From Giesbergeria sp. (lineage in GTDB: Bacteria > Pseudomonadota > Gammaproteobacteria > Burkholderiales > Burkholderiaceae_C), in contig JAPKHH010000004.1 of assembly GCA_026647025.1 (NCBI GenBank), positions 12,743 to 76,742 on the forward strand: a DNA stretch of 64,000 nt, read 5' to 3'. The position numbers and the translations under genes are program-made. The notes under the pieces were generated by a model. That model was not told where the DNA came from. It saw only the letters and a program-made list of their open reading frames with translations, and ran no database searches. Positions 26,811-45,107 of this stretch are shown here, piece by piece; positions within the stretch are counted from its first letter, which is position 1; every line of letters begins with the position of its first letter.

Positions 26811-28106
26811 TCAGCGAATGCGCGGCGTGGCCTGCATCTGCTCAGGGGTGGTGAACCATGCAGCGCTGGTCCCCATCCGGCCCCGCGCCTGGGCGATCTC
26901 ATGGCGGGCCACGCTGCGCAAATGCACCTCGTCCGGTCCGTCCATCAGATGCAGTGCCCGTCCCCAGCTCCAGAACTGGGCCAAAGGGGTGTCCGGCGAG
27001 AGGCCCATGGCACCAAACACCTGCATGGCACGGTCGACCACGCGGCTTTGCAGGCGGGCTGCCACGACCTTGATGGCCGCCACCTGGGCGCGTGTGGTGG
27101 CGATATCGACAGCCTCCCCCTGGTCAAGCAGCCAGGCCGTGTGCAATACCAGCAGGCGTGCCTGGTCGATCTCGATACGGGACTCGGCCAGCCAGTCCTG
27201 CACGTTGGAGAACTCCGATTCGTAGCGCCCGAACATCTGGCGCTCCAGCGTGCGCTCGGCCGCCAGCTGCAAGGCCAGCTCGCACTGCCCAATGGTGCGC
27301 ATGCAGTGGTGCACGCGGCCGGGTCCGAGCCGGGCTTGCGCCATCGCAAACCCCGCACCCCATGCGCCCAGCAACGATGTCTGCGGCACGCGCACGTTCT
27401 GCAGCAGGATCTCGCAATGGCCTTCGGGCGCATGGTGGTGCAGCACCGGAATGTTGCGCAGCACCTGCACGCCGGGTGTGTCCAGCGGCACCAGCACCAT
27501 GCTGTGGCGCCGGTGGGCATCGTCGGCACTGCCGTCCTCCGCCGCGGCATTGCGGCACATCACGATCAACAGCCTGCAGTGGGGGTGCGCCGCCCCCGTG
27601 ATGAACCATTTGCGGCCACTCACCACCAAGGCGTCACCCTCGCGGCGCACGGTGGTCTGCAGGTTGGTGGGGTCGGAGGACGCGACGTCGGGCTCGCTCA
27701 TTGCAAACGCCGAACGGATCTCTCCGTGAAGCAGGGGCTGCAGCCATTGGGCCCGCTGCGCATCGTTGGCAAAGCGGTGGAGCAATTCCATGTTGCCGGT
27801 GTCGGGTGCGCTGCAGTTGAACACTTCCGATGCCCACGGCAGGCGGCCCATGCTTTGCGCCAGTGGTGCGTAATCCAGGTTGGACAAGCAGGTGCCGGGT
27901 TCGTCAGGCTGCAGACCCGGCAGGAAGAGATTCCACAGCCCTTCCTCGCGGGCCAGGACTTTCAGGTCGTCGAGAAAAGGGGGAGGGAAAACGCCGTCCT
28001 GCACGGCGCGGTGCCAGGCGGCGTTGTGGGGCAGGAGGTAGCGCAGCATGAAGGCGTCCAGGCGCAGCTGAAGGTCCCGCGCGCGCGGGGAGAGAGCGAA
28101 GTCCAT
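26811..28106 (-). CDS. Acyl-CoA dehydrogenase family protein (ACAD10/11-like)
   Basis: SAPDTGNMELL, SAFAMSEPDVASSD, GRKWFITGA, LGPGRVHHCMR, LMDGPDEVH. Confidence 0.9.
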   Translation of the reverse strand: MDFALSPRARDLQLRLDAFMLRYLLPHNAAWHRAVQDGVFPPPFLDDLKVLAREEGLWNLFLPGLQPDEPGTCLSNLDYAPLAQSMGRLPWASEVFNCSAPDTGNMELLHRFANDAQRAQWLQPLLHGEIRSAFAMSEPDVASSDPTNLQTTVRREGDALVVSGRKWFITGAAHPHCRLLIVMCRNAAAEDGSADDAHRRHSMVLVPLDTPGVQVLRNIPVLHHHAPEGHCEILLQNVRVPQTSLLGAWGAGFAMAQARLGPGRVHHCMRTIGQCELALQLAAERTLERQMFGRYESEFSNVQDWLAESRIEIDQARLLVLHTAWLLDQGEAVDIATTRAQVAAIKVVAARLQSRVVDRAMQVFGAMGLSPDTPLAQFWSWGRALHLMDGPDEVHLRSVARHEIAQARGRMGTSAAWFTTPEQMQATPRIR

Positions 28107-28136
28107 GCAGCATTGTGGGCGGCCATGCCGCCGCCG

Positions 28137-29147
28137 TCACAACGCAGGCGACAGCCGGGGGGAACGCACCAGAACGGGAATACCCAGCAGCACCGCCAGC
28201 AGCAGCGCCGCTGCCATGTTGTGGGCGAGAGCCGCCGCCAGTGGCAGGCCCAGCGTGACCAGTGCCACCCCCAGCCCGATCTGCGCTGCCAGCAAAGCCA
28301 AAAGCAAGAGTGCGGCAACGCGCAGCCCACCGCGCCAGGCGAAAGCGGCCAGCGGCAGCAGGACGGCCACCACCACCAGTCCGCCGACGCGGTGCAGTAC
28401 ATGCACCCACGCGCCGGCCGGGTGGTTCGGCAGCGCGGCGTTGGTCTGAGGCTCCGCCCAGGGATTGAAGGCGTCCCAGGAGCCAGCGCTCAGGTCGCAG
28501 CCCGTCAGTCCGGTGCAGCTCAGGCCGGCCTGTCCCGCGCTGACCAGCCCACCCAGCGCCACCTGCGCCAGCAAGAGCGCGGCGCCCAGCCAGGCCCAGC
28601 GGGCCAGGCGCGGTGGTGGACCACCGGGGATGGAATCCAGGCGGCCGGTCAGCGCCATCCGCACGCTCACCGCGAACATGACAAAGCCCCCCAGCAGGTT
28701 GCCCAGGGTGACGGCGGGAATGCGGGCATGGGCCGTCCAGCGCCCGAGCACCGCCAGAAAAAGCGCCAGCCCGAGCAAGCCCAGGGCCAGCCGCCCCTGG
28801 GGCCACAACACCGGCCGGGACGCCACCGCCGCCATCACCATGACCAGCACCAGCAAAAGCGCCGACGAGGCGATCACCCGGTGCGCCAGCCGCGCACCGG
28901 CGGTAGCGGCATCGGCTTGCAGGGGCGGCTCGCCCTGCTGTTGAGCGCGCCACTGCTGCCCGTAGCACTGGGGCCAGGGCTCGCAGCCCAGGCCTGCCTT
29001 GGACAGGCGGATATAGGCGCTCAGGCTGGTGATGGCCAGCACCAGCACGGCGCAGATCCAGGCCATGCGCCGCAGCAAAAGCACCCGCCGCTGGACCGGG
29101 TCCGCCGGAGAGGAAAGAAGAGAGGGAGGCATGGCAGGGAGGTTCAT
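28137..29147 (-). CDS. ctaA: Divergent heme A synthase (COX15/CtaA family)
   Basis: GLGCEPWPQC, AHR, GLSCTGLTGC, VLHR, AHN; ~8 TM; divergent from the oxidase operon. Confidence 0.78.
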   Translation of the reverse strand: MNLPAMPPSLLSSPADPVQRRVLLLRRMAWICAVLVLAITSLSAYIRLSKAGLGCEPWPQCYGQQWRAQQQGEPPLQADAATAGARLAHRVIASSALLLVLVMVMAAVASRPVLWPQGRLALGLLGLALFLAVLGRWTAHARIPAVTLGNLLGGFVMFAVSVRMALTGRLDSIPGGPPPRLARWAWLGAALLLAQVALGGLVSAGQAGLSCTGLTGCDLSAGSWDAFNPWAEPQTNAALPNHPAGAWVHVLHRVGGLVVVAVLLPLAAFAWRGGLRVAALLLLALLAAQIGLGVALVTLGLPLAAALAHNMAAALLLAVLLGIPVLVRSPRLSPAL

Positions 29148-29299
29148 GGCGGCGCGAAAAAAGAGCGAAGAAATGCGGCGGCAGCGGAACGCGGCACGGG
29201 CGCGCGAAGGGAATTTTCCCCATCACCCCCCAAATCCTGGAGAAAGTGTCTCTTTCTCCGGAAACTAGGCGTTTACCCTGATTTCAGGGTCCTTAACTG

Positions 29300-29313
29300 T
29301 TGATCGAAATCAT
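29300..29313. promoter_or_regulatory. FNR/DNR/NnrR-type binding site
   Basis: TTGAT-CGAA-ATCAT, 9/10 match to TTGAT-N4-ATCAA, 68 bp (centre) upstream of the ATG at 29375. Confidence 0.65.
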
Positions 29314-29374
29314 GTTTAACTCTCAGTAGTCGATCAAAAATGTCAGGTACTGTCCGCTTTACCAAGGAGAAGAC

Positions 29375-29530
29375 ATGAGCCAGCACGACGACGAGAACGA
29401 AAAAGTTCCGCTTATGCAGCAGTTATTGGACAACCCGTTCCTCCTGCTGTTTTTGGGGGTGATGATTCCCATGATCGTATATTCGCTCTGGGGCGTTATC
29501 GACATTCTGACCATTCCGGTGGCGAAATAA
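29375..29530 (+). CDS. 51-aa single-TM protein, probable small subunit of the heme-copper enzyme
   Basis: SD AAGGAG; MSQHDDENEKVPLMQQLLDNPFLLLFLGVMIPMIVYSLWGVIDILTIPVAK; below the ORF-track cutoff. Confidence 0.8.
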   Translation: MSQHDDENEKVPLMQQLLDNPFLLLFLGVMIPMIVYSLWGVIDILTIPVAK

Positions 29531-29542
29531 GGGGTAACGCAC

Positions 29543-30082
29543 ATGAGCGCCATTCTTCCCCCCTCAGAGCGGTTGTGGTGGAAACACCCGCTGGACCGTC
29601 TCGAAGCCGTCTGGATTGTCATCGCCTTCATCTGGTGCATGGTCATGTTCTTCATGATGGTTTTCTGGCATGTCTACGGCAAGCAGAACCTTGCGACCGA
29701 GACCTACAAGACCACACCCGACAAGTTCACCGCCGCCACCCAGGCCATGGTGGACAAGTACACCGTCCGCACGGAAACCGACCAGAACATTCCGGTGGTG
29801 CGTCCGCCCGAGGGCAGCGACATCTACCTGATTGGCCGCCTGTGGAACTGGTGGCCGATTCTGGAACTGGAAAAAAACAAATCCTACAAGTTGCACCTGA
29901 CCTCGATGGACTACAACCACGGTTTCTCGCTTCAGCCCACCAACATCAACATCCAGGTGGTGCCAGGATATGAGCACGTGATCAAGGTCACGCCCAACGA
30001 GTCCGGCACTTTTTCCATCATCTGCAACGAATTTTGCGGAATCAACCACCACACCATGGTGGGCCGCATGTACGTGAAGTAG
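29543..30082 (+). CDS. Heme-copper oxidase subunit II (B-family type, one TM, CuA)
   Basis: DYNHGF and CNEFCGINHHTM CuA ligands; WNWWP. Confidence 0.92.
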   Translation: MSAILPPSERLWWKHPLDRLEAVWIVIAFIWCMVMFFMMVFWHVYGKQNLATETYKTTPDKFTAATQAMVDKYTVRTETDQNIPVVRPPEGSDIYLIGRLWNWWPILELEKNKSYKLHLTSMDYNHGFSLQPTNINIQVVPGYEHVIKVTPNESGTFSIICNEFCGINHHTMVGRMYVK

Positions 30083-30095
30083 CAGGAGCACCGAC

Positions 30096-31793
30096 ATGAC
30101 TGCAACCACTTACCGTACCTGCCCGCGCTCGGGCCTGCAATTCGAATCCCAGGCGGAAAAGCTGATGATCGCCAATGCCGTCGCCGCCGTCGTGGCGCTG
30201 CTGGTCGGCGGTCTCCTGGCCATTGGTGTCGTGCTGACCCGCTGGCCCGCCGTGCACTGGCTGGCGGCCGACACTTTCTACATGGTGCTCACGGCACACG
30301 GCATCGACATGCTGATCTTCTGGATCATCTTCTTCGAAGTCGCAGTGCTGTATTTCGCCTCGTCGACACTCTTGCGGTGCCGCATTGCCACACCCAAGAT
30401 CGCCTGGGCGGCCTTCGCACTGATGCTGATCGGCGCGGTGATGAACAACCTGACGGTGTTCCAGGGCGGCTCCAGCGTCATGATGACCTCGTACGTGCCC
30501 ATGATGGCGTCGTCGTGGTTCTACCTGGGCCTCATCCTGTTCGCCGTCGGCGCCCTGATTGCGTGTTTTGTGTTTTTCGGCACGCTGGTGGTCGCCAAGC
30601 GCGAAAAAACCTACGAAGGCTCGGTGCCCCTGGTGACGTTTGGCGCCATCACGGCCGCCATCATCGCGGTGTTCACCATTGCCTCCGGCGCGATCATCCT
30701 GATCCCCACCTACATGATGGCCATTGGCCTCATCAGTGAAGTCGATCCGTTGATCTACCGCACCATCTGGTGGGCTTTCGGGCACTCGTCGCAGCAAATC
30801 AACGTGGCAGCGCACATCTCGATCTGGTATGCCGTGGCGGCCATCGCCTTCGGTGCCAAGCCCATGTCCGAGCGCGTCAGCCGTGGCGCCTTCCTGCTGT
30901 ACATCCTGTTCCTGCAGCTTGCCAGTGCCCACCACCTGTTGGCCGACCCCGGCATCAGCACCGAGTGGAAAGTGGTGAACACCAGCTACTTCATGTACTT
31001 CGCCGTGCTGGCTTCGATGATCCATGCGCTGTCCATTCCGGGCGCCATGGAGGTGGCCCAGCGTGCCAAGGGCTACAACAAGGGCCTGTTTGAATGGCTG
31101 CGCAAGGCGCCCTGGGGCAACCCTGCTTTTTCGGGCGTGTTCATCTCGCTCGTGGGCTTCGGCTTCCTCGGTGGCATCTCCGGCGTGATGATGGGTACCG
31201 AACAGCTCAACCTGCTGATCCACAACACCATCTACGTGCCGGGCCACTTCCACGCCACCGTGGTGATTGGTACCACGCTGACCTTCATGGCCCTGACGTA
31301 CTTCCTGATTCCTGTGCTGTTCCGGCGCGAGATGATCTCGCCCGGTCTGGCCAAGATCCAGCCGTACCTCTTCGGCTTCTCGATGTACTTCTTCTGCCTG
31401 GTGATGATGGGCGCCGGTACGCTGGGCGTTTCCCGTCGGCACTGGGACATGGCCTTCAGTGGCGCGGCCCTGGCCTATGAATGGCCCGGCGCGGCGTATC
31501 TGATGATGGGTCTGGTCGGTATCGGGGGGATTGCCGCCATCGTGGGTGGCGGCATCTACATCTACGTCACGGTGGGCTCCATCTTGTGGGGCAAGAAGCT
31601 CGATACCGGCGTCGTGAGCCCCAAGTTCACCCCGGTGGGACGGGCTGCACCCACAGCCGCCGCACAGACCTATGGCTCTGCAGGGTTCGTGGCTCCTGGC
31701 ACCTTCGTGCTGGCCATGTTCTTCCTGGTGTCCTTCGTGCTGTACTACTTCATCAACTGGAAGTACCTGGGCCAGCTCTGGGGCCTGAGCTAA
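30096..31793 (+). CDS. Heme-copper superfamily subunit I with Tyr->Gln; probable eNOR-type nitric oxide reductase
   Basis: TAHG (helix II), GHSSQQIN (helix VI, H+4 = Q rather than Y), SAHHLL (helix VII), GHFHAT (helix X). Confidence 0.78.
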   Translation: MTATTYRTCPRSGLQFESQAEKLMIANAVAAVVALLVGGLLAIGVVLTRWPAVHWLAADTFYMVLTAHGIDMLIFWIIFFEVAVLYFASSTLLRCRIATPKIAWAAFALMLIGAVMNNLTVFQGGSSVMMTSYVPMMASSWFYLGLILFAVGALIACFVFFGTLVVAKREKTYEGSVPLVTFGAITAAIIAVFTIASGAIILIPTYMMAIGLISEVDPLIYRTIWWAFGHSSQQINVAAHISIWYAVAAIAFGAKPMSERVSRGAFLLYILFLQLASAHHLLADPGISTEWKVVNTSYFMYFAVLASMIHALSIPGAMEVAQRAKGYNKGLFEWLRKAPWGNPAFSGVFISLVGFGFLGGISGVMMGTEQLNLLIHNTIYVPGHFHATVVIGTTLTFMALTYFLIPVLFRREMISPGLAKIQPYLFGFSMYFFCLVMMGAGTLGVSRRHWDMAFSGAALAYEWPGAAYLMMGLVGIGGIAAIVGGGIYIYVTVGSILWGKKLDTGVVSPKFTPVGRAAPTAAAQTYGSAGFVAPGTFVLAMFFLVSFVLYYFINWKYLGQLWGLS

Positions 31794-31808
31794 GCAGGAC
31801 ACGGCGCC

Positions 31809-32708
31809 ATGCACACCACCACGATCCATCCCGCCGGGCGCAGTGCGGCACAGTGGACGCGCGACGTCATCTCGCTGTTCAAGCTGCGCATCGGTGTGCT
31901 GATCATGATTACGGCGCTCGTGGGCATGGCGGTCTCGCCAGGCCCGGCGCCCAGTCTGGTGCAGGTGCTCGTGCTTGCGCTGTCGGTGCTGATCGCGTCC
32001 GCCAGCGCAGGTGCGTTCAACCAGTATGTCGAGCACGAGAGCGATCGCCTGATGGCACGCACGCGCAAGCGGGCCTTTGCCACCGGGGCGCTGCCCCACC
32101 ATCCCGCCTGGCTGGCCCTGATGGCCGTGCTGCTGGCGGGGGCGGTGGCATCGGCCTGGCTGGTGCTCAACGCAGCGGCTGCGCTGTATGTGTTTCTGGG
32201 CGCCTTTTTCTACGGAGTGGTCTACACCCTGTGGCTCAAGCGGCGCACGGCGCTCAACATCGTGATCGGGGGGTTGGCAGGCAGCTTTGCCGTGCTGGCC
32301 GGGGCTGCCGCCATTGACCCGACTCTGGGCCCACTGCCCGTGCTGCTGGCCTTGGTGTTGTTCCTGTGGACGCCACCGCATTTCTGGAGCCTGGCAATCG
32401 CCAACAAGGCCGACTATGCGCAGGCGGGCGTGCCCATGCTGCCGGTCGTCGTGGGCACCGAGCGCGCTGCGCACATCGTTCTGGGCAGCACGGTGGCATT
32501 GTTCGTGGCTTCGCTGCTGCCGCTGGGATTTGGCGCCGGCCCGGTGTACGCCGTGGGCGCCCTGGTGGGGGGGCTGCACTTTGTGCACAAGTCGTGGCTT
32601 CTGGTAGCCCAGCCCAGCCGCGCCACCGCCATGGGTTCGTTCTTCGCTTCGCTGATCCAGCTCAGTTTGTTGCTGGTGGCGGCGTGCATCGACGCTTTCA
32701 TGCGCTAG
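31809..32708 (+). CDS. ctaB: Protoheme IX farnesyltransferase (heme O synthase)
   Basis: LFKLRI, FNQYVEHESDRLMARTRKR, YTLWLKRRT, FLWTPPHFWSL. Confidence 0.93.
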   Translation: MHTTTIHPAGRSAAQWTRDVISLFKLRIGVLIMITALVGMAVSPGPAPSLVQVLVLALSVLIASASAGAFNQYVEHESDRLMARTRKRAFATGALPHHPAWLALMAVLLAGAVASAWLVLNAAAALYVFLGAFFYGVVYTLWLKRRTALNIVIGGLAGSFAVLAGAAAIDPTLGPLPVLLALVLFLWTPPHFWSLAIANKADYAQAGVPMLPVVVGTERAAHIVLGSTVALFVASLLPLGFGAGPVYAVGALVGGLHFVHKSWLLVAQPSRATAMGSFFASLIQLSLLLVAACIDAFMR

Positions 32709-32728
32709 GGCCGGGAAGCCGGATTTTT

Positions 32729-33586
32729 ATGCACGCCACAGAACGTATTTCAGCACTGTCTGGGGCCGTGCTGTGTCTGTTCCTTGTTCTGTTGGCGCCA
32801 GCTGTCGTGCAGGCCTCGTCCCACGGGTCTGATCTGGGGTTGGACCGGGAGCAGGCACTGCGCACCAGCCAAGCTGCGTTGGGCCGCAAGATCGCTGACC
32901 ATACCCTGCTGGACCGTGAAGGTCGACCGGTCCGGCTTTCTTCCTACCGGGGCAAACCGCTGCTGGTCAGTTTCATCTACACCGGGTGCTTCCAGGTGTG
33001 CCCGACCACCACGCGGTCGTTGCAGGAAACGGTCGAGGGCTTGCAAAAGACCTTTGGCACCAACCAGTTCAACGTGGTGAGCATCGGTTTCAACCAGCCC
33101 GATGATTCGCCCCAGGCGCTCAAGGCGTTTGCCGCCCAATACCGCATCCATCAGCCCAGCTGGGAATTCTTGAGCCCCTCCATGGCTACCGTGGGGCCGC
33201 TGGCCCGTGATTTTGGGTTTGTCTACGAAGCCACTCCGGCGGGCTTCGACCATGTGCTGCAGGTGTCGCTGGTCGATGCGCAGGGGCGCATCGTGCGGCA
33301 GGTCTACGGGGAGAGCATTCGACCGGGCGATATCGGCGAACCCCTGAAACTGCTGCTCAACGGCACGCCGGTTGAGCCTTCCCTGGCGTTGGAAAGTCTG
33401 ATGGACCGTGTGCGCATCCTGTGCACGGTGTACGACCCCAAGACGGGCCAGTACCGGGTGGACTACACCCTGCCTATCCAGATTGCTGGGGGCATCACCT
33501 TTCTGATCGCCATGCTGGTGTTCTTTCTCAACGAGTGGCGCTCTGTACGGCGCAGTGCCCGCAACAAGGAGGCGCGCCGCGCCTGA
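32729..33586 (+). CDS. SCO-family copper chaperone with C-terminal TM extension
   Basis: FIYTGCFQVCP (CxxxC), FDH; signal peptide; C-terminal TM. Confidence 0.88.
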   Translation: MHATERISALSGAVLCLFLVLLAPAVVQASSHGSDLGLDREQALRTSQAALGRKIADHTLLDREGRPVRLSSYRGKPLLVSFIYTGCFQVCPTTTRSLQETVEGLQKTFGTNQFNVVSIGFNQPDDSPQALKAFAAQYRIHQPSWEFLSPSMATVGPLARDFGFVYEATPAGFDHVLQVSLVDAQGRIVRQVYGESIRPGDIGEPLKLLLNGTPVEPSLALESLMDRVRILCTVYDPKTGQYRVDYTLPIQIAGGITFLIAMLVFFLNEWRSVRRSARNKEARRA

Positions 33587-33601
33587 CGCCCGCCCGTTTT
33601 C

Positions 33602-35188
33602 ATGCCCTTGCCTGGTTCAGCCTTTGTTTCCAAAGGATCTCCTGTTTCGCTGACGCTTCCGCCGGTTCCCCGCAGTGCGGCCCTCTACCGGGCCGTGGAA
33701 CATTCCTTTGACGTACCGTTCGGGGCGGCGCTGAACCCGCTCAAACATCTGGGGGCCCTCGGTTTCCTGTTTTTCTGGCTGCTGGTCGTCACGGGGGTGG
33801 TGCTCTACATCGTGCTCGACACCTCGGTCGGGGGCGCGTACCAATCCATCAACGATCTGGCCCAGGTGCCCTGGATGCTGGGCGTCATGCTGCGCGGCGT
33901 GCACCGCTACGCCGCCGATGGCTTTGTGATCGTCATGTTCGCCCATCTCCTGCGGGAATGGATGCTGGGCCGGTTCAAGGGTTTTCGCCGTGTTCCCTGG
34001 CTGACAGGTGTGCCCCTGGTTGCCCTGGCCTTTGTCAGTGCGATTGGAGGCTTCTGGCTCAACTGGGACCGCCTGGGCCAGTTTTCGGCTGTGTCCACGG
34101 CCGAGTGGCTCGATACCTTGCCGTTCCTGGCGTCGCCCCTGGCGCGCAATTTTCTGGGCGGCGTCAGTCTGAATGCGCGGCTGTTCACCCTGTTCGTTTT
34201 CGTGCATCTGGGTGTGCCGCTGCTGATGGTGTTTGCCCTGTGGTTTCATATCCAGCGCATCAGCCTCGCACGGGTTTTTCCGCCGCGTGCCTTGGCCTGG
34301 GGCACGCTGGCCATGCTGCTGTTGCTTTCACTGGTCCTTCCGGTGCGCAGCCAGGGGCCGGCCGACCTGATGTCGGTGCCCGTTTCCTTGTCACTGGACT
34401 GGTTCTTGTTGTTCATCCACCCCTTGATCGACGCTACTTCGGCGCAAGCGGTGTGGGCGCTCGTGGCCATGGTTTTCGCCGGATTGATACTGTTGCCGTT
34501 CACCCCCGTGCGCGCCGAACCCGTGGCCGTGGTGAACCCCGACCATTGCAGCGGCTGCAGCCGCTGTTTTGCCGACTGTCCCTATTCCGCCATTACGATG
34601 GTGCCCCACCCCAACGGGCGGCGGGGCATGCAACTGGCCGAAGTGCGTGCCGACCTGTGCGCCAGCTGTGGCATCTGTGTCGGCTCCTGCCCGTCTTCCA
34701 CGCCGTTTCGCAGTACCGAGGTACTGCACACCGGCATCGACATGCCGCAGTGGCCCATCGACGACTTGCGCGCCCGTTTGTTGCAGGGCCTGGCTGCCAT
34801 GCCGGGGCCGCGCAGGCTGGTGGTTTTTGGCTGCGATCAGGGCCAGCGCAGCCGCATGGGCGCGCCGGATGTCCTGCATCTGGGCATGGTGTGTGCAGGC
34901 ATGCTGCCGCCTTCCTTTGTCGAGTACGCATTGCGCGGAGGTGCCGACGGCGTGCTCATCAACGGCTGCCGCGAGGGGGGCTGTGAATTCCGCCTGGGCC
35001 AACGCTGGACACAGCAGCGCCTGAACGGTGAGCGCGAGCCGCATCTGCGCACCTCCGTGCCGGCCGAACGCTGGCGTGTCGTCTGGACCGACCCGGGCGA
35101 TGAAAGCCAGCTGGTATCCGCCCTTGAAGACATGCGCACGCATTGCGCACCCGGCGCACCTCACCCATTTTTGGAGAACACCCCATGA
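33602..35188 (+). CDS. Cytochrome b / 2x[4Fe-4S] ferredoxin / MvhD-FlpD-like [2Fe-2S] fusion protein
   Basis: GVHRYAADGFVIVMFAH and FVHLG...WFH (four heme b His); LDWF; CSGCSRCFADCP; CASCGICVGSCP; FGC...CAGM...GCREGGCEF. Start codon uncertain. Confidence 0.85.
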   Translation: MPLPGSAFVSKGSPVSLTLPPVPRSAALYRAVEHSFDVPFGAALNPLKHLGALGFLFFWLLVVTGVVLYIVLDTSVGGAYQSINDLAQVPWMLGVMLRGVHRYAADGFVIVMFAHLLREWMLGRFKGFRRVPWLTGVPLVALAFVSAIGGFWLNWDRLGQFSAVSTAEWLDTLPFLASPLARNFLGGVSLNARLFTLFVFVHLGVPLLMVFALWFHIQRISLARVFPPRALAWGTLAMLLLLSLVLPVRSQGPADLMSVPVSLSLDWFLLFIHPLIDATSAQAVWALVAMVFAGLILLPFTPVRAEPVAVVNPDHCSGCSRCFADCPYSAITMVPHPNGRRGMQLAEVRADLCASCGICVGSCPSSTPFRSTEVLHTGIDMPQWPIDDLRARLLQGLAAMPGPRRLVVFGCDQGQRSRMGAPDVLHLGMVCAGMLPPSFVEYALRGGADGVLINGCREGGCEFRLGQRWTQQRLNGEREPHLRTSVPAERWRVVWTDPGDESQLVSALEDMRTHCAPGAPHPFLENTP

Positions 35189-35688
35189 ACCGAGCCCTCA
35201 ACTGGACAGGGCAAGCCCTGCTCTATGGCAGTTTTGCCCTGGTAGTCGGCGTCTTCTCGCGCTGGCCCAGCTACCATCCTCTGGCGCCGAACGAGGCGCA
35301 GATCAAGGTCAGCTTCATTCACCATGGTGCGCGGATTGCCGAATGCCGCCCCTACACGGCCGAGGAACTGTCCAAACTGGCGCCGAACATGCGCGCGCCC
35401 ATGAAATGCGAACGAGAGCGCTCGCCGGTGCGCATCGAGGTCGAGGTCGATGGCGTGTCCGTCTATGCCCACACGGCCACGCCCTCGGGCTTCTCGCGCG
35501 ACGGTGCCTCCACGGTGTACCAGCGACTCAATGTTCCCTCGGGTGAACATCGCATCACTGTGCGCATGAAAGACAACATGAAGTCGCCCGACTTCCCGTA
35601 TGTGCACGACTCCACCGTCACACTGCAACCCGCGCAGGTCATGGTGATCGACTTCAACCCGGACAAAGGGGAGATCGTTCTGCTATGA
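35185..35688 (+). CDS. Hypothetical membrane-anchored protein with a probable periplasmic beta domain and a Cys pair
   Basis: ATGA-coupled to both neighbours; one N-terminal TM; ECRPY...MKCERERSP. Confidence 0.78.
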   Translation: MNRALNWTGQALLYGSFALVVGVFSRWPSYHPLAPNEAQIKVSFIHHGARIAECRPYTAEELSKLAPNMRAPMKCERERSPVRIEVEVDGVSVYAHTATPSGFSRDGASTVYQRLNVPSGEHRITVRMKDNMKSPDFPYVHDSTVTLQPAQVMVIDFNPDKGEIVLL

Positions 35689-37136
35689 GTGCACTGCCCT
35701 CTCACATGCTTGGCGTGCATGCCGCCGCAGGCCGCCCGTTGCCCGCAGCGATGCCGGGGCTGGACTATGAGCTCACGGTGCCGCAGGACGCCCGGCAGGC
35801 CCTGGCGCGTGGATGGCTCTGGCTGGGTCTTTTGGCGCTGGTGGGTTCGGGACTGTTTTCCATCCTGCTGGTGCTCTCGCGCACGCCGTACGTCAACCAG
35901 TGGTTGCCTGCGGCCAATTTTTTCCAGGTCTCGCTGGTGCTGCATGTCGATTTGTCGGTGCTGGTGTGGTTCGTGGCCCAAGGGGGCATGCTCTGGAGCA
36001 TTCACGGCACCCGGCGCGGCACGCACTGGGGCTGGCTGGCGCTGGCGGTGGCCGCAGTCGGCACATTGGCCATGGCCTTGGCGCCGTTTCTGAACCGGGG
36101 CGATCCCGTCATGGCCAACTACATCCCGGTGCTGGATTCGCCGCTGTTTCTGGGCGGCCTGGTCGTGTTCGGCGCGGGCACGGCTCTGCTGGTACTGCGC
36201 AGCCTGCTGGTCGCGCCCCGGCTGGGACTGGAGTACGACGGCCGCGGTGCGCTGGATTTTGGTCTGAGCAGCGCAGCCATTGCCACGGCCGTCGGTCTGC
36301 TGGCCTTTGCATGGTCCTATGCCGTGCTGCCGACCGCGCTGCATGGCAAGGCCTACTACGAAATCCTGTTCTGGGGCGGTGGCCACGCCTTGCAGTTCAC
36401 CTGGACCTTGCTCATGCTGGTGGGCTGGCTCTGGCTGGCCAGCGCCTGTGGTGCGCGCGTGCCCCTGAGCCCGCGCGTGGTGGTGCTCATGTTCGCGCTG
36501 GCCCTGGTGGGCGTCTTCATCACGCCCTATGCCTACCTGGCGCATGACATCACCTCGGTGGAGCACCGCAATCTGCTGACCTGGGCCATGCGGGCCGGTG
36601 GTGGACCGGCCATCGTGCCGGTGGGCCTGGCCGTGGTCTATGCCATCGCCACCACGCGGCTGGACAGCGACACCCTGCGCCCGCTGCGTGCCGCGCTGCT
36701 GGCATCGGTGCTGTTGTTTGCCGCTGGCGGGGTGATCGGCATCTTTATCCAGGGGAGCAATGTGCGCATTCCCGCGCACTACCATGGCTGCATTGTCGGG
36801 GTCACGCTGGCGCTCATGGGCGTGGTCTACAAGACCTTGCCGGCGCTGGGCTACCGTGCGCCCCAGGGGCGCCTGGCCACCTACCAGCCCTGGCTGTACG
36901 GTGCGGGTCAACTCATGCACATCATCGGGCTGGTCTGGTCGGGTGGCTACGGTGTGCAGCGCAAGGTGGCCGGTGCCGAGCAGGTGCTGCGCAGCACGGC
37001 CGAGGTGGCCGGCATGGGCCTGATGGGCCTGGGCGGGCTGATCGCCATCATCGGCGGACTGCTGTTCGTGGTGGTGGTGGTCCAGGCCATGCGACATACG
37101 CCCGCTGCGGCGGGCTCCAACGGGACGACACGATGA
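35685..37136 (+). CDS. Heme-copper subunit I paralogue lacking the helix VII His-His (CuB/FeB) pair
   Basis: LHVD (helix II), FWGGGHALQF (helix VI), PAHYHG (helix X); ~12 TM; no HH dipeptide in the protein. Confidence 0.75.
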   Translation: MSALPSHMLGVHAAAGRPLPAAMPGLDYELTVPQDARQALARGWLWLGLLALVGSGLFSILLVLSRTPYVNQWLPAANFFQVSLVLHVDLSVLVWFVAQGGMLWSIHGTRRGTHWGWLALAVAAVGTLAMALAPFLNRGDPVMANYIPVLDSPLFLGGLVVFGAGTALLVLRSLLVAPRLGLEYDGRGALDFGLSSAAIATAVGLLAFAWSYAVLPTALHGKAYYEILFWGGGHALQFTWTLLMLVGWLWLASACGARVPLSPRVVVLMFALALVGVFITPYAYLAHDITSVEHRNLLTWAMRAGGGPAIVPVGLAVVYAIATTRLDSDTLRPLRAALLASVLLFAAGGVIGIFIQGSNVRIPAHYHGCIVGVTLALMGVVYKTLPALGYRAPQGRLATYQPWLYGAGQLMHIIGLVWSGGYGVQRKVAGAEQVLRSTAEVAGMGLMGLGGLIAIIGGLLFVVVVVQAMRHTPAAAGSNGTTR

Positions 37137-39052
37137 TCAAACGATTCCAGGCCCTGCTGCAGTGGGTTTTCTTGCGTGTCGAGGGCTTGTTCAATGCGGC
37201 CTTTGGCGACCGCATCAATCCTTTCTACCACCTGGGGGCCATCACCTTCTTCCTGTTCTGGGTGGTTGGCGCCAGTGGCCTGTACCTGTACATCTTTTTC
37301 GAAACCGGTCTGTCTGTTGCGTATTCCTCGGTGGTGGCACTGACCGAAAACCAGTGGTTCGCTGGCGGCATCATGCGCAGCGTGCACCGCTACGCGTCCG
37401 ACGCCATGGTGCTGACCATGGTGCTGCACATGCTGCGCTACTTTGCCTTCAATCTGTACCACGGCTTTCGCTGGTTCTCATGGATCACCGGGGTGATGCT
37501 GATCTGGATGGTGTATGCCACAGGGATCAACGGCTACATGCTGCCCTGGGACCAACTGGCGCAGTTCGTCACCGTGACCAGTTTCGAGTGGCTTGACTGG
37601 CTGCCCAGTTTTGGCGGCACCTTGATGCGCAACTTCATCTACTCCTCGGCCGTGGGCGATCGCTTCTTCACCCTGCTGTCGTTCATGCACCTGGGCCTGC
37701 CCCTGGTGGTGCTGATGGTGATGTGGATCCACGTGCAGCGCGTTCCCAAGGCACGCACCACGCCGCCGCGTCCCATCGTCATCGGCCTGCTGCTGACCAT
37801 GCTGGTGCTGTCACTGGTCCTGCCGGTGCACAGCCAGGGGGGTATTAGCAACCTGGCACAGGCCGTGACGAATGTCGAACTCGACTGGTTCTACCTGGCC
37901 ATCTTCCCACTGCTGACCGAATGGCCGCTGGGCCGGGTCTGGGCGCTGGTGGTGGGCGGCTCGCTGGTGCTGGCGCTGCTGCCCTGGTGGCCCCCGCGCT
38001 TTCGCCGGGGAGCACACACCAGCCACCAGGTGGTGGTGCGCGGCGTGGATGGCGCGAGCGCGGAATTCAGCGTGCGCGAGGACGAAACCATTCTGGATGC
38101 CGGTCTGCGCGAAGGCCTGGCCTTGCCGTATGAATGCCGCAATGGGGGGTGCGGCCTGTGTCTGTGCAGCGTGGAGCACGGCAACATCGACCACCGGCCC
38201 TACCAGCGCAGTGCGTTGCCCGATGCGCAGAAGGCCCAGGGCAAGGCGCTGATGTGCTGCGCTGTGCCGCGTGGCGACGTCGTGATCGACGTGGAGGGTT
38301 TTACCGGTGCCGCCGCCCAGGCCGCCGAGGTGCACACTGCCACCGTGGCGCAACTGGAACGCCTGGCTGACGATGTCATGCGTGTGCTGCTGCAACTGCC
38401 CGAGGGCAAGACGCTGGACTTTGCTGCAGGCCAGTACATCGACATCCTGCTGGACGACGGCCAGCGCCGTGCGTTCTCGTTTGCCAACCGGCCCCATGCC
38501 AGCAGCCAGATCGAGCTGCACATTCGCCTCGTGCCCGGCGGGCGCTTTACGACCCATGTGTTCGAGGCGATGCGGGTGGGCGACGTCCTGCGTTTCGAAG
38601 GCCCGCGCGGCAGCTTCACGCTGCGCGAAAGCACGCACCCCATTTTGTTCGTGGCCGGTGCCACCGGTTTTGCACCGATCAAGAGCATTGTGGAAGATGC
38701 CTTCGAGCGGGGCGTGCAGCGCCCCATGCGCCTGTACTGGGGTGTGCGCCAGCGCAAGGACCTGTACCTGCTGGCGCTGTGCGAGCAATGGGCGCGGGAC
38801 CACACCAACTTCACCGTGGTGCCGGTCGTGTCAGAGCCCGCCGAGGGCGACGGCTGGACGGGCCGCACGGGACTGGTGCACGAGGCCATGCTGGCCGACT
38901 TTCCTGATCTCAGCGGCAACGAGGTTTACCTGTGCGGCTCTGTGAAGATGGTGGAAACTGCCGTCCCGGCCTTCATTGCCCAGGGCCTGGGTGAGGATGC
39001 CTGCTTCTCGGACGCATTCCTGATGGCAGCGCCAGCACAGACACAACAGTAG
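37133..39052 (+). CDS. Cytochrome b / [2Fe-2S] ferredoxin / FAD-NAD(P) reductase fusion protein
   Basis: SVHRYASDAMVLTMVLH; FMHLG...WIH; ELDWFY; CRNGGCGLC...C; RAFSFAN; GGRFT; AGATGFAP; YLCGS. Confidence 0.88.
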   Translation: MIKRFQALLQWVFLRVEGLFNAAFGDRINPFYHLGAITFFLFWVVGASGLYLYIFFETGLSVAYSSVVALTENQWFAGGIMRSVHRYASDAMVLTMVLHMLRYFAFNLYHGFRWFSWITGVMLIWMVYATGINGYMLPWDQLAQFVTVTSFEWLDWLPSFGGTLMRNFIYSSAVGDRFFTLLSFMHLGLPLVVLMVMWIHVQRVPKARTTPPRPIVIGLLLTMLVLSLVLPVHSQGGISNLAQAVTNVELDWFYLAIFPLLTEWPLGRVWALVVGGSLVLALLPWWPPRFRRGAHTSHQVVVRGVDGASAEFSVREDETILDAGLREGLALPYECRNGGCGLCLCSVEHGNIDHRPYQRSALPDAQKAQGKALMCCAVPRGDVVIDVEGFTGAAAQAAEVHTATVAQLERLADDVMRVLLQLPEGKTLDFAAGQYIDILLDDGQRRAFSFANRPHASSQIELHIRLVPGGRFTTHVFEAMRVGDVLRFEGPRGSFTLRESTHPILFVAGATGFAPIKSIVEDAFERGVQRPMRLYWGVRQRKDLYLLALCEQWARDHTNFTVVPVVSEPAEGDGWTGRTGLVHEAMLADFPDLSGNEVYLCGSVKMVETAVPAFIAQGLGEDACFSDAFLMAAPAQTQQ

Positions 39053-39130
39053 AACCCTGGCTCTTGGACGAAAACGGCCATGCATCAATTGCAGCGGCCG
39101 CTTCGCATCTTTCATCTGAACTCTTCGATG

Positions 39131-40138
39131 TCACATGTCTGGATGGGTTTCCGTGCTCTGAATGCGCCTACCTCGCGGTGACTCGCCCGCGAAACGCCGA
39201 AACACGCGCCGAAACGCTGCTGGATCGGCATAGCCAACACGAGCCGCAATTTCGTCGACTGAGACATTGCTGGTTTCCAGCATATGCGTCGCATGCGAGA
39301 CGCGCAACCGTTGGACAAGTTCGTTGGGTGTCATGCCAAGGCCGGCATGCACACGCCGAGCCAGGGTTCTGGATGAAATAGCGGCAGCGTTGGCCAGTTC
39401 CGCCAGCGTAATCTGCCGGTCCAGGTTGTTGATGATGAAACGCTCAACCTTTTGAAGGGCCGGATCGGACACGCGCAGATGCTCCATCACCATGTAACGT
39501 GACTGTGAGGGTCGGTTGTCAAGTACGAGGTAGCGTGCCACCCACTGCGCTAGCGACGGACCAGCGATGCGGGCGATGACCGCCAGCATCAGATCCGCAT
39601 GGGCAAAGGCAGAACCTGCTGTGAGCGCGCCAGGCGCTTCGACCACCATTCGGTCCGCTGCAAGTGAGACGGCAGGAAAGCGTCTCGCGAATGCAGCGGC
39701 AAGCCACCAAGTCGTGGTCGCCTGCTGACCATCCAACGCACCCGTTGAAGCCAACAAAAATGTCGCCGAGCAGGACGCAGCGAGCATGGTTCCTTTGGTT
39801 GCCGCAGATCGCAAAGCCACAGCTCCACGTTGGGTCTCGTCACGGGACAGCAGCTGCTCGATCGAGACTTCGGTGGCGGAGAACCAGCCGGGCACAACAA
39901 GGACATCCGACGCCCCCATGCCACGCAAGCCGAACGCACCATCGACAGCAATGGTGCGGCCAGCCCCGGATCGCACTGGCTGGCCATCAACTGAAACTAC
40001 ACGCTGACGCAGCAGCTTGGCAGCATGCGGCACATCAACCACTCCATTGGCAGCCAAACGCGTTGCCGCACCTACGATGTCGATCCCGACGCCCAGGGAG
40101 CTTTCCGCAACACCGTCGAATATCAGATGCGTAATCAT
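39131..40138 (-). CDS. GlxA-type AraC regulator (DJ-1/PfpI domain + HTH)
   Basis: ASCSATFLLA, ATTTWW, TAGSAFA; C-terminal IAARVGYADPAAFRRVFRR. Confidence 0.9.
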   Translation of the reverse strand: MITHLIFDGVAESSLGVGIDIVGAATRLAANGVVDVPHAAKLLRQRVVSVDGQPVRSGAGRTIAVDGAFGLRGMGASDVLVVPGWFSATEVSIEQLLSRDETQRGAVALRSAATKGTMLAASCSATFLLASTGALDGQQATTTWWLAAAFARRFPAVSLAADRMVVEAPGALTAGSAFAHADLMLAVIARIAGPSLAQWVARYLVLDNRPSQSRYMVMEHLRVSDPALQKVERFIINNLDRQITLAELANAAAISSRTLARRVHAGLGMTPNELVQRLRVSHATHMLETSNVSVDEIAARVGYADPAAFRRVFRRFAGESPRGRRIQSTETHPDM

Positions 40139-40212
40139 TTTGGCAATTATGGACCGTAAATGGTCATTTGTGCCACTGCCAAGAATGTGGCCTACAGCCT
40201 AAGCTTGGGGCC

Positions 40213-41016
40213 ATGACGACCTTTGATGCAAATGTGCGCCTTGCGAGAATCCATGAGGCTTCCACCCCCGGAGCGCTGATGGACCTGGACTCATCGTGGT
40301 GGGGGTTTGGTGGGCTCCATGGCGGATTGGCATTGAGCTTGTTGACAGCCGCCATGCGCAACAGATCACCGGGACGCGTCTTGCGGCAAGTCACTGGTCG
40401 ATTCCAACGCGCCCTGCGGGAGCCGTTCACATTGGACGTATCGGACCCTTCGGCGGGAAGGAATGTGTCCTGGCTGGACGCCTGCGCAGCCGAAGGAAAT
40501 CGCGTGGCCATATCGGCCAACGCGCTGTTCACTATGCCAAGCCAAGGGAGCGGGACGGGCTTCGCACCACAGATGCCGGTTGTGCCGCCGCCATCGCAGT
40601 GCCCGGTTTTCAGCATACCCGCCGCATTCGTGCCGTTCGCCCGGCATACCGAGATTCGGCCCGTAGGCAAAGTCCGACCGTTCAGCAACGCTGTCGAACC
40701 GGAACTCATCGCCTGGGTGCGCCTGGTCGATGACGACCTCCCGCCCGACGATGCCCGGCTGGTCCTGCTGATGGACGCACTCGCGCCGTCCTATTCGGCG
40801 GTCCTGGGCGCACCGGTTCCTATGCCCACCGTCACGTACACGGTGACGCCGGGCAGCGGCCTGGCCCAGGCGTCGTCGCCCTGGGTGCTGCTGTACGCAC
40901 GCACCGATGCCTGCCGAAGTGACGGTTGGATACGGGAACGCCTGGAAGCATGGGCGCCCGATGGCACGCATCTCGGCTCGGCCGAGCAATTGCGCGTCGT
41001 TATGGACAGGACATGA
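40213..41016 (+). CDS. Thioesterase family (double hotdog) protein
   Basis: WWGFGGLHGGL, LLMDALAP, MPTVTYTV, GTHLGSAEQ. Confidence 0.8.
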   Translation: MTTFDANVRLARIHEASTPGALMDLDSSWWGFGGLHGGLALSLLTAAMRNRSPGRVLRQVTGRFQRALREPFTLDVSDPSAGRNVSWLDACAAEGNRVAISANALFTMPSQGSGTGFAPQMPVVPPPSQCPVFSIPAAFVPFARHTEIRPVGKVRPFSNAVEPELIAWVRLVDDDLPPDDARLVLLMDALAPSYSAVLGAPVPMPTVTYTVTPGSGLAQASSPWVLLYARTDACRSDGWIRERLEAWAPDGTHLGSAEQLRVVMDRT

Positions 41017-41045
41017 ATCTTTTGAGCCACTGAAGGAGGCAACCT

Positions 41046-42278
41046 ATGGACAGCTACATCATCGGCGCGGCACGCACGCCGCGCGGCAAGGGAAAGATCG
41101 GCAAGGGCGCACTGACGAGCGTTCACCCGCAAGAACTGCTGGCGACAGTCCTTAGGGCGCTCCCCGGCAGGGCCGGCTTCGACGTACGAGACGTAGACGA
41201 CGCAGTGGTTGGCACCGTTTCACAAATCGGCGCGCAGGGCGCAAACATTGCGCGCAACACGGTCCTGGCTGCCGGGTGGCCCCAGGATATCGGCGGCGTC
41301 TCGCTGAACCGATTCTGCGGTTCGGGCCTGCAAGCCATCCACTTCGCGGCCATGGGCGTCGCCTCTGGTGCGCAACGACTGGTGGTGGCGGGCGGCGTCG
41401 AGAGCATGTCGCAGTTTGGTCTGGGTGCCGACGGCGGTGGCCAGGACGGGGGCAACCCCAAGCTTCGAGAGCGTGTATTCCAGGTGCCGCAGGGCATCAG
41501 CGCCGACTTGATCGCGACCCTTGAGGGCTTCGGTCGGGAGGAGCTCGACGCTTGGGCGTTGCGCTCGCAGCGCCGCGCGGCACTCGCCATCGAGGAAGCC
41601 CGCTTCACGTCCTCACTCGTTCCTGTACATGACCCGCTGACCGGGGACCTGCTACTTGCCAGCGATGAGTTTCCGCGCCCGGACAGCACGGCGCAGGGGT
41701 TGGCGGCGCTGCCGGCTTCCTTTGTGGCACTGGGCGGTGCGACCGCAGGCGCGAATGGTGAAACCTTCGACCAGATTGCCCTGGCCGCCTACCCGCAGGC
41801 GGGAGTGATCCGGCACATCCACACGGCGGGCAATTCCAGCGGTATCGTCGATGGGGCGGCCGCCGTCGCCGTGGCATCGGGTGACTACGTAAAGGCCCAC
41901 GGCCTGCGACCGCGTGCCCGCATCCGCGCCATCGCATCGATCGGCAGCGAGCCGCTGATCATGCTGACCGCTCCTGCGGCGGCGAGCGAGAAGGCCCTGA
42001 AGGCGGCCGGTCTCGCGGCTGGCGACATCGACCTGTGGGAGATCAACGAAGCCTTCGCTGCCGTCGTGTTGCAGACGGTACGCCGACTGGGTATCGACCC
42101 GGAACGCGTGAACGTCAATGGCGGCAGCATCGCCCTGGGGCACCCGCTGGGAGCCACAGGCGCCATCCTGCTCGGCACGGTGCTCGATGAATTGGAGCGC
42201 CGTGATGCATCAACCGCCGTCATCACCATGTGCATCGGCGGCGGTCAGGGGGTCGCCACGGTCATCGAGCGCGTGTAG
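41046..42278 (+). CDS. Acetyl-CoA C-acyltransferase (thiolase)
   Basis: [27 protein letters not shown]. Confidence 0.93.
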
Positions 42279-42294
42279 TTCAAGCAGGCACGCC

Positions 42295-43494: not shown

Positions 43495-43655
43495 GTGCTC
43501 TGGCGCGTGGCCGCGCGGACATTCGCCAACATGTGCTGGAGGCTTCGTTGATGACCGAAACATCTTCAGCCATCACGCCCACCGCTTGATACGCCCAAAT
43601 TTCCGGACGGGATGGCGCACCGCCGCATCAATGATTGTTATTGGATGGATGTTTT

Positions 43656-44921: not shown

Positions 44922-44924
44922 CGC

Positions 44925-45085
44925 TCGGGTGCTTCTGGATGGCAGCATCCGCGAAACCCGGCTGGCAGTCGCGTATGCCGCTGGCAGATGCCGTACCACG
45001 GCATTTCCTCGTCAAGCCAGATCGTCAGCGACCTTCGTGTCTTGAGTGCGCTGTTCTACGCAGCACAGTGGTGGTCTTGCCGCAG
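44925..45085 (-). pseudogene. IS5-family (IS903 group) transposase N-terminal relic
   Basis: Own translation: AA*NSALKTRRSLTIWLDEEMPWY, then after a frameshift FADAAIQ; resembles the IS903-type N-terminus (YNAALKARGSLTIW...FSDAAIQ). Confidence 0.7.
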
Positions 45086-45107
45086 GACGGGCGCTTCCAT
45101 CTCAGTG

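Follow-up and report, generated by a model that had tools for sequence, protein, structure and literature searches.

A stretch of 64,000 nucleotides (nt) from Giesbergeria sp. (contig JAPKHH010000004.1, positions 12,743 to 76,742; hereafter the window) carries at 28137–39052 an operon for a predicted nitric oxide (NO) reductase of the eNOR type, followed by genes that, our data strongly support, constitute a dedicated and co-inherited companion set of this enzyme. The conserved core of the set is a Rieske-less, six-helix, di-haem cytochrome b together with an anchored periplasmic protein, which we call Anch; the cytochrome b has an exchangeable cytoplasmic tail, which may be of the iron–sulfur (FeS)/MvhD type, of the FNR type or absent. 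The window encodes two such cytochromes b, CybFeS (33602–35188, + strand) and CybFNR (37133–39052, + strand), and between them Anch (35185–35688, + strand) and SUIpar, a paralogue of reductase subunit I (35685–37136, + strand). An initial annotation of this region had grouped these last four genes as a dedicated module. Their link to eNOR as a companion set held, whereas the four genes as a conserved unit did not: the four-gene module is a betaproteobacterial elaboration. Tentatively, and with slightly less than even confidence, we read the cytochrome b–Anch unit as a transmembrane electron wire dedicated to eNOR.

The reductase itself comprises a catalytic subunit I of the haem-copper superfamily (30096–31793, + strand; Pfam COX1, 211 bits) and a subunit II with one transmembrane helix and a CuA cupredoxin domain (29543–30082, + strand; Pfam COX2). 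Among solved structures, subunit I comes nearest to B-family oxidases, with 7deg first (E 1e-48) and the ba3 oxidase of T. thermophilus next (E about 1e-43). Subunit I keeps all six canonical histidines, with its LTAHG, GHSS, SAHH and GHFH motifs aligning with the ba3 ligands, and nine diverse eNORs share these six residues, which serve the low-spin haem (two), the high-spin haem (one) and metal B (three), without exception. The position of the cross-link tyrosine, four residues beyond the histidine of helix VI, is occupied in subunit I by a glutamine, such that GHSSQQ aligns with GHPIVY of ba3 and GHPVVY of 7deg; glutamine in place of this tyrosine is the published diagnostic criterion of eNOR (PMC8756737). 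In subunit II, the CuA ligands H126, C161, C165, H169 and M172 are conserved across 59 sequences. The glutamine, the six histidines, the CuA-containing partner and the B-family relationship, all found here, bear out the earlier description of a tyrosine-less, eNOR-like reductase. We therefore call the enzyme a predicted eNOR, with NO reduction and haem As assigned by homology and with genes for both CtaA and CtaB present. The eNOR of Rhodothermus marinus has been shown to be an NO reductase with haem As, and many eNOR operons contain CtaA (PMC11214002).

The association of the downstream genes with eNOR was examined in three independent samplings: loci seeded on CybFNR, even genome samples, and loci seeded on eNOR subunit I alone. 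Seeding on CybFNR yielded 80 loci from Comamonadaceae, Rhodocyclaceae/Accumulibacter, Casimicrobiaceae and others, of which 46 had at least 9 kb on both sides. Gene order and strand were rearranged between lineages, and eNOR subunit I lay no more than 10 kb away in 42 of the 46; in the four exceptions eNOR was found elsewhere in the genome. The initial annotation had named a module occurring mostly without eNOR as one of the outcomes that would tell against its reading, and the distribution is clearly the opposite. Of 401 genomes sampled evenly from the window's order, 50 had eNOR, accompanied by SUIpar in 50/50 and by full-length CybFNR in 49/50. None of 12 other genomes sampled from the window's own family encodes eNOR, so its distribution is patchy. 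A phylum-level sample added 49 further eNOR genomes, with a SUIpar homologue in 49/49 and this type of cytochrome b in 48/49; SUIpar is thereby present in 99/99 sampled eNOR genomes of Pseudomonadota. One metagenome-assembled genome labelled ‘Bacteroidota’ (L112, JBLMXN010000132.1) has a full proteobacterial-type eNOR cluster and sorts into the same phylum sample as the window; its label or binning is probably wrong.

Seeding on eNOR subunit I gave 80 loci from Alpha-, Beta-, Gamma- and Zetaproteobacteria, including Paramagnetospirillum, and 61 of them extended at least 5.5 kb downstream. Among these 61, a Sco gene was present in 60, the cytochrome b in 60, its FeS/MvhD tail in 59 and Anch in 60, always in the order II–I–(CtaB)–Sco–cytochrome b–Anch. 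The strictness of this co-inheritance extends to the single locus without the module, where both cytochrome b fusions are on another contig. The FNR-tailed cytochrome b was limited to 5/61 loci, all betaproteobacterial; Zetaproteobacteria have two FeS-tailed copies, and some Betaproteobacteria have the FNR-tailed copy only.

Both cytochrome b parts have six hydrophobic helices, and the fused tails are therefore cytoplasmic. In CybFeS the di-haem cytochrome b is followed by two [4Fe–4S] clusters and an MvhD/FlpD-like [2Fe–2S] tail (Pfam Cytochrome_B, Fer4_7 and FlpD, all above cut-off, with FlpD at 49.3 bits versus 22.3), and in CybFNR by a [2Fe–2S]–FAD–NAD(P)H reductase tail (Pfam Cytochrome_B, Fer2, FAD_binding_6 and NAD_binding_1). 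The histidine ligands of haems bL and bH, in helices B and D, are 98–100% conserved in both fusions at the spacing found in bc1. In CybFeS these are H101, H115, H202 and H216, which are conserved at that level together with D266–W267; the tail conserves two CxxCxxCxxxC motifs and four cysteines of the MvhD part (C411, C431, C456 and C461). In CybFNR, H85, H99, H186, H200, D251–W252, C335, C340, C343 and C375 are invariant, the four cysteines being those of the [2Fe–2S] cluster, and the FAD and NAD modules are intact. Both cytochrome b parts align with the host's own bc1 cytochrome b over helices A–F (probability 97.7% and 98.5%). In that alignment an xDWF motif (LDWF in the window), with invariant D and W, falls on the host's PVWY at the PEWY position, and both fusions lack the Qi histidine, which would lie five residues beyond the bH ligand, as well as the long de loop. 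Their membrane part stops at helix F, short of the eight helices of bc1 or of b6 plus subunit IV, and is followed by the soluble tail; on the negative side, the fused tail thus stands where a quinone site would be. As the initial annotation had stated, the operon contains no gene for a cytochrome c, Rieske protein or cytochrome c1: a motif search of all products found neither CxxCH nor a Rieske motif, and bc1-type partners (a Rieske protein or a c1/f-type cytochrome) are absent from the operon products. Likewise, neither the window operon nor 160 related loci encode an Mvh hydrogenase or an HdrA-type flavoprotein.

The reductase tail of CybFNR resembles BenC, MmoC and Fre but falls below the equivalog cut-offs of the NCBIfam models (BenC 215 versus 430 bits, MmoC 212 versus 500), with E 6e-55 against the Fre model, and no oxygenase gene adjoins CybFNR. 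Its domain set is accordingly of the BenC/MmoC class, yet it does not appear to be an equivalog-level reductase of an oxygenase system. All 82 FNR-tailed copies group in one clade of 83 in a FastTree phylogeny (node support 0.6), which suggests a single origin; the deep nodes of this tree of cytochrome b paralogues are poorly supported.

Anch is a protein of 167 amino acids (aa) with no Pfam or NCBIfam match. An AlphaFold2 (AF2) model of high confidence (predicted local distance difference test (pLDDT) 93.7) has an N-terminal transmembrane helix and an eight-strand β-sandwich, for which Foldseek returned generic Ig/CBM-like matches, none below E 1e-3. C54, C75, R70, R77, R79, D106, D130 and D156 are invariant. 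The initial annotation had described an anchored protein with a cysteine pair; the two cysteines are there, but they stand 21 residues apart, flanking a conserved loop of 20 residues, and so resemble a structural disulfide more than a redox pair of the CxxC kind. Three identities considered for Anch, namely a degenerate subunit II (cupredoxin) and a homologue of either Cox11/CtaG or PCuAC, were rejected, as none was among the Foldseek matches.

A profile search with Anch recovered 1490 clusters, which include single-chain fusions of cytochrome b and Anch. Some are of the form cytochrome b–2x[4Fe–4S]–FlpD–Anch (687–692 aa; P0188, P0216 and P0219), and others lack the redox tail (453–465 aa; P0147 and P0160); at least one copy can evidently do without its cytoplasmic redox domain. 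Anch forms the C-terminal part of each such chain, and the fusions lie inside eNOR clusters (loci L198–L205): one directly after Sco, one in the arrangement II–I–CtaB–Sco–CybFNR–Anch–[cytochrome b–Anch]–SUIpar, and one beside nirS, a NirT-like cytochrome and a cupredoxin. These natural fusions fix the topology of Anch, with its N-terminus cytoplasmic and its sandwich periplasmic, and argue that Anch binds the cytochrome b. A strict pairing of one Anch with each cytochrome b was rejected, given that 66/67 loci with two cytochromes b in the betaproteobacterial set have a single Anch; two loci have two. As a separate observation, the metagenome contig with nirS (L202:12452-21906) places eNOR in a denitrification island with nirS (cytochrome cd1), a fusion of NapC/NirT-family multihaem and EB_dh domains and a small cupredoxin, which is a plausible conventional periplasmic donor to CuA. 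The cytochrome b–Anch fusion of this contig has its own Crp/FNR regulator.

SUIpar is related to eNOR subunit I (hhalign probability 99.5%, 26% identity over 426 columns; Pfam COX1, 49.7 bits versus a cut-off of 34.8). The relationship is seen by profile and fold comparison, as a phmmer search of SUIpar against PDB sequences gave nothing at E ≤ 1; by Foldseek, the AF2 model (pLDDT 85.8) best matches ba3 subunit I, with a TM-score of about 0.70, in line with the twelve-helix subunit-I fold. Across 62 sequences, H87, H234, H365 and H367 are at least 98% conserved and the helix VII His–His is replaced by A283/Y284, in agreement with the earlier description of a paralogue without this pair. The histidines of helices II, VI and X are retained, H234 is the sole metal-B histidine left, and SUIpar has neither the three CuB/FeB histidines nor the His–His–Asp variant of gNOR. 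With its haem-ligand histidines kept and the helix VII pair lost, SUIpar is therefore taken to be a two-haem protein without a CuB/FeB site. Open frames of 1194–1223 aa that seemed to fuse SUIpar, Sco and CybFNR were rejected as high-GC artefacts, because the genes are in different frames. In two metagenome contigs a 62-aa open reading frame follows SUIpar (L200:12744-12932 and L201:6159-6347), at the place where the window has CybFNR.

The cytochrome b–Anch unit thus presents a two-haem path across the membrane, with its inner end at FeS or flavin cofactors and its outer end bearing a Qo-like motif and a bound periplasmic domain. We propose that this path serves eNOR. Electrons from a cytoplasmic reductant would pass to bH, then to bL, and from there to the Qo-like site or to a partner on the periplasmic face, where eNOR takes electrons. 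The reductant could be NAD(P)H, entering through the FNR tail, or an unspecified partner acting through the FeS/MvhD tail. FNR/BenC/Fre/NqrF-type modules are NAD(P)H-oxidising reductases, and for this reason we favour flow from the cytoplasm through the b haems to eNOR; in the precedent of MsrQ–Fre, an NAD(P)H:flavin reductase supplies a periplasmic enzyme by way of membrane haems b. The unit would presumably contact eNOR, and quinone and SUIpar may each have a part in the transfer. A similar path had been drawn in the initial annotation, from NAD(P)H through FAD, [2Fe–2S] and the b haems to CuA. Its course from NAD(P)H to bH and bL is allowed by the topology and by the four invariant histidines, but its final step, from bL to CuA, gained no such backing.

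Several observations weigh against an electron wire. The bL-to-CuA step is a bare proposal, haems in subunit-I folds are buried, and exporting electrons from NAD(P)H looks wasteful, as it would undo the charge separation achieved by eNOR. Anch has no apparent cofactor site in its AF2 model or among its Foldseek matches, and tail-less cytochrome b variants exist. SUIpar is adjacent in 16/61 of the eNOR-seeded loci and is encoded elsewhere in the genome for the rest. The rate at which the companions diverge is close to that of Sco and CtaB and above that of subunits I and II, in keeping with helper proteins, and the fixed Sco–cytochrome b–Anch order beside genes for haem O and haem A synthases also fits maturation. 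There is no electron-supply gap to fill in the host, the assembly of which (3.7 Mb) also encodes an aa3 CtaD, a cbb3 CcoN, a norCBQ cluster and a canonical bc1 cytochrome b. Moreover, the purified eNORs of R. marinus and Magnetospirillum magnetotacticum consist of subunits I and II only and accept electrons from artificial donors (PMC11214002), which means that the companions are no tightly bound part of the enzyme. A further point comes from a bacteriohaemerythrin gene (about 130 aa; Pfam Hemerythrin, E 2e-10), which directly follows Anch on the same strand in 40/61 eNOR-seeded loci (loci L106–L185, with examples at L150:14547-14942 and L205:4529-4933). It occurs there in 0/80 of the betaproteobacterial CybFNR-seeded loci, which mostly carry SUIpar at this place, and its product may assist eNOR clusters by handling O2, NO or iron.

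A broader arrangement, which we regard as possible but somewhat doubtful, is that the cytochromes b, Anch and SUIpar would join eNOR in a novel supercomplex that moves electrons through the membrane between cytoplasmic NAD(P)H or FeS carriers and NO reduction. Such an assembly would be either an NAD(P)H:NO oxidoreductase resembling NADPH oxidase, bypassing quinone, bc1 and cytochrome c, or a quinol-bifurcating machine in which NO reduction drives the reduction of NAD(P)+ or ferredoxin and the CuA domain takes the place of the Rieske protein. A supercomplex has been proposed for Ferrigenium straubiae; the presence of all four companion proteins in the Ferrigenium proteome under denitrifying conditions is a point in favour of the electron wire (bioRxiv 10.64898/2026.01.22.701106).

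The main rival to the electron wire, although we judge it rather unlikely, is cofactor maturation, in which the companions would build eNOR rather than feed it during turnover. They might supply electrons for haem A synthase, include a subunit-I-like protein that scaffolds or carries haem As, much as NifEN serves nitrogenase, or assist Sco-dependent loading of CuA or FeB. Gene position is in keeping with this idea: the companions invariably follow Sco directly and adjoin CtaB and CtaA/Cox15 genes, and in one metagenome contig Sco overlaps the start of the cytochrome b–Anch gene. SUIpar, which retains haem ligands without a catalytic metal site, and the Sco- and CtaB-like divergence rates of the companions point the same way. 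Eukaryotic Cox15 needs ferredoxin and ferredoxin reductase, and [2Fe–2S], FAD and NAD(P)H together offer the chemistry that Yah1/Arh1 give to Cox15. In addition, purified eNOR has two subunits only (PMC11214002), and it uses the unusual haem As; the synthesis of haem A near anoxia is a puzzle (PMC11214002; bioRxiv 10.64898/2026.01.22.701106). By contrast, Betaproteobacteria alone have the FNR-type tail, whereas the cytochrome b and Anch are present throughout, so a ferredoxin-reductase role is not the general one. The conserved Qo-like motif and the full two-haem transmembrane path exceed the usual needs of an assembly factor, and Anch is unlike known copper or haem chaperone folds, with no match to Cox11, PCuAC or Surf1 by Foldseek. 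The detection of all four proteins in a proteome (bioRxiv 10.64898/2026.01.22.701106) also speaks against maturation.

Electron flow in the reverse direction, or bifurcation, seems to us clearly unlikely. Here quinol would be oxidised at the Qo-like site, with one electron passing to the high-potential eNOR branch and the other through bL and bH to the tail, where NAD(P)+ or a low-potential FeS acceptor would be reduced; the CuA head would possibly replace the Rieske protein, and NO reduction would drive the production of reductant. The cytochromes b do retain Qo-side features and carry FeS or flavin chains in place of the Qi side, low-potential chemistry of the Hdr type is where MvhD-type domains belong, and reverse electron flow is a necessity for many of the hosts, which live as autotrophs by oxidising Fe(II) or sulfur (such as Zetaproteobacteria, Gallionellaceae and Sulfuricaulis). 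Many others, however, are ordinary heterotrophs (Comamonadaceae, Accumulibacter, Woeseiaceae and Xanthobacteraceae). By our own estimate, with ubiquinone at +90 mV and a CuA-like acceptor at about +250 mV, the second electron would fall short of −320 mV, and the bL-to-bH step would oppose the membrane potential. CuA is fixed on subunit I, leaving no mobile head, and no BenC/Fre-type module is known to do anything but oxidise NAD(P)H. In favour of bifurcation, there is no Rieske gene in the cluster, as also noted for related fusions (PMC4122944), this mode of flow has been proposed for Ferrigenium (bioRxiv 10.64898/2026.01.22.701106), and the same logic has been put forward for anammox Rieske/cytochrome b complexes with NAD(P) oxidoreductase subunits (PMC12954380).

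Least probable of all is a separate enzyme merely co-regulated with eNOR, in which SUIpar would be a catalytic or sensing centre fed by the cytochromes b, with no electron exchange with eNOR, for O2 scavenging, NO binding or peroxide handling in microoxic denitrification: SUIpar does keep a five-coordinate haem site with conserved distal H234, Q237, Y284 and M302, is often encoded away from eNOR and has its place beside Anch taken in many loci by haemerythrin, an O2 or NO binder, but co-regulation alone hardly explains co-occurrence with eNOR in 99/99 genomes, no known enzyme of the haem-copper superfamily works without a metal-B site, and the cytochrome b/Anch unit remains part of the eNOR operon also in loci that have lost SUIpar from it.

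Di-haem b membrane proteins that link a quinone site or periplasmic partner with cytoplasmic FeS or flavin modules are familiar from NarI/NarH-type loops, QmoC and MsrQ–Fre; these have NarI, HdrE and FRD-type folds, whereas the cytochrome b here is of the bc1 type, and the likeness is one of function and not of family membership. Closer relatives of the operon are in print. The eNOR of R. marinus and the ‘cytochrome a1-like’ protein of M. magnetotacticum (Murali et al. 2024, PMC11214002) share with the window a B-family-derived subunit I with the glutamine and six histidines, a CuA subunit II, and CtaA and CtaB in or beside the operon. They were two-subunit preparations, studied without the companions that the window operon encodes (the cytochrome b fusions, Anch and SUIpar). 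A ‘PDWF-FeS’ clade of cytochromes b with both fusion architectures and no Rieske partner was described without a proposed function (Kao & Hunte 2014, PMC4122944), and we assign the cytochromes b of the window to it. As in CybFeS, cytochrome b is joined to 4Fe–4S and MvhD parts in M. magneticum and Turneriella parva; as in CybFNR, it is joined to a ferredoxin and a flavin oxidoreductase in Alicycliphilus denitrificans; and the Qo motif xDWF without a nearby Rieske gene recurs in the window, where the motif reads LDWF. That account was a phylogenetic note and made no link to eNOR, Anch or a subunit-I paralogue. The operon of F. straubiae (bioRxiv 10.64898/2026.01.22.701106) matches the window in having eNOR subunits II and I, haem o synthase, Sco, a ‘scaffold’ protein, cytochrome b–FeS–FAD–NAD and cytochrome b–FeS, and the Gallionellaceae-like locus L090 has the Ferrigenium-type gene order. 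The preprint regarded the cytochrome b fusions as unusual and suggested them as genus markers, whereas we find that the fusions, or the FeS-tailed form, accompany eNOR across the sampled Pseudomonadota; the pairing of cytochrome b with Anch, shown here by the fusions, also goes beyond it. Papers on eNOR of Zetaproteobacteria and Gallionellaceae do not mention the companions.

The initial annotation was therefore right that no characterised complex has this composition but wrong to regard the system as undescribed, given the published fusions (PMC4122944) and operon (bioRxiv 10.64898/2026.01.22.701106). The system has been partly described already, and what is proposed here for the function of the companion set is predicted from sequence. 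The anammox Rieske/cytochrome b complexes (PMC12954380) resemble the window in leading from the negative side via FeS to FAD and NAD(P) and in their genetic tie to N-oxide chemistry; they differ in having Rieske proteins, subunit IV, multihaem cytochromes c and a separate reductase subunit of another type, none of which is in the window operon. A direct source of the greenhouse gas nitrous oxide (N2O), eNOR is common in nature, being found in wastewater Accumulibacter, in Gallionellaceae and Zetaproteobacteria that oxidise Fe(II), and in Woeseiaceae of sediments. The companion set may show how this N2O-producing enzyme is wired to the electron supply of the cell. An electron wire would change the bioenergetic accounting of denitrification. 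If NAD(P)+ is reduced instead, this would be the second example, after the anammox complexes, of quinol bifurcation making reductant, and a maturation role would be relevant to the synthesis of haem A-type cofactors with hardly any oxygen present.

The region 28137–39052 contains ten genes, nine on the + strand (29375–39052) and one divergent (28137–29147). The genes, their order and their domain make-up were present as first described, and the co-orientation stood, although nine co-oriented genes were counted in place of eight. Short gaps and ATGA overlaps joining the last four genes had also been noted correctly, with three overlaps at 35185, 35685 and 37133 and gaps of 12–20 nt elsewhere. 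The neighbours of the operon, an acyl-CoA dehydrogenase gene and an AraC/DJ-1 regulator gene on the opposite strand, are unrelated, and we therefore take 28137–39052 as the unit. Ahead of subunit II, the first + strand gene (29375–29530) encodes a 51-aa membrane protein with one hydrophobic helix and no family match. It is kept upstream of subunit II in 27 related loci, in a position that we take to be like that of subunit IIa of ba3 oxidases. Subunit I is followed by CtaB haem O synthase (31809–32708, + strand; UbiA family in Pfam, TIGR01473 at 260.6 bits versus a cut-off of 210.3) and by a Sco1/SenC copper chaperone with a transmembrane helix at both its N and C terminus (32729–33586, + strand; Pfam SCO1-SenC, 55 bits), whose corrected start codon is the ATG at 32729.

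The divergent gene (28137–29147, − strand) encodes a homologue of CtaA-type haem A synthase (Pfam COX15-CtaA, 120.6 bits versus a cut-off of 29.9), and CtaA or Cox15 genes repeatedly adjoin eNOR clusters in related loci. The divergent promoter region contains, 62 nt ahead of the first + strand gene, the FNR/Dnr-type box TTGATCGAAATCAT (29300–29313), one mismatch from the TTGAT-N4-ATCAA consensus. Both the divergent CtaA and the FNR-type box had been pointed out initially. The box alone is weak, with 2 matches in the window versus 0.45 expected; a box occurs at an equivalent distance upstream of subunit II in 41/57 related loci, and a Crp/FNR-family regulator gene is a recurrent neighbour (28 loci). 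G+C content is 0.62–0.65 across the operon and about 7 kb downstream (window positions 28000–46000), compared with 0.66–0.71 in much of the remaining window. Horizontal acquisition would fit both the lower G+C content and the lack of eNOR in the 12 genomes sampled from this family.

Elsewhere in the host genome, a norC–norB–norQ cluster (G000:C201, locus L100:300-3375) comprises an upstream open reading frame with a CIGCH haem c motif, a 476-aa NorB-like COX1 protein and then a NorQ-like AAA+ gene, the NorB and NorQ calls being based on Pfam COX1 and motifs rather than on a curated model. The predicted eNOR is therefore a second NO reductase in this genome. The idea that the module stands in for a missing bc1 complex or a missing NO reductase was rejected, since the host has the canonical cytochrome b, aa3, cbb3 and norCBQ. 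The genome also encodes a divergent 551-aa CcoN-like protein (G000:C203, locus L099:1369-3024, − strand), which scores 261 bits against a CcoN cut-off of 583 and may be another divergent haem-copper paralogue.

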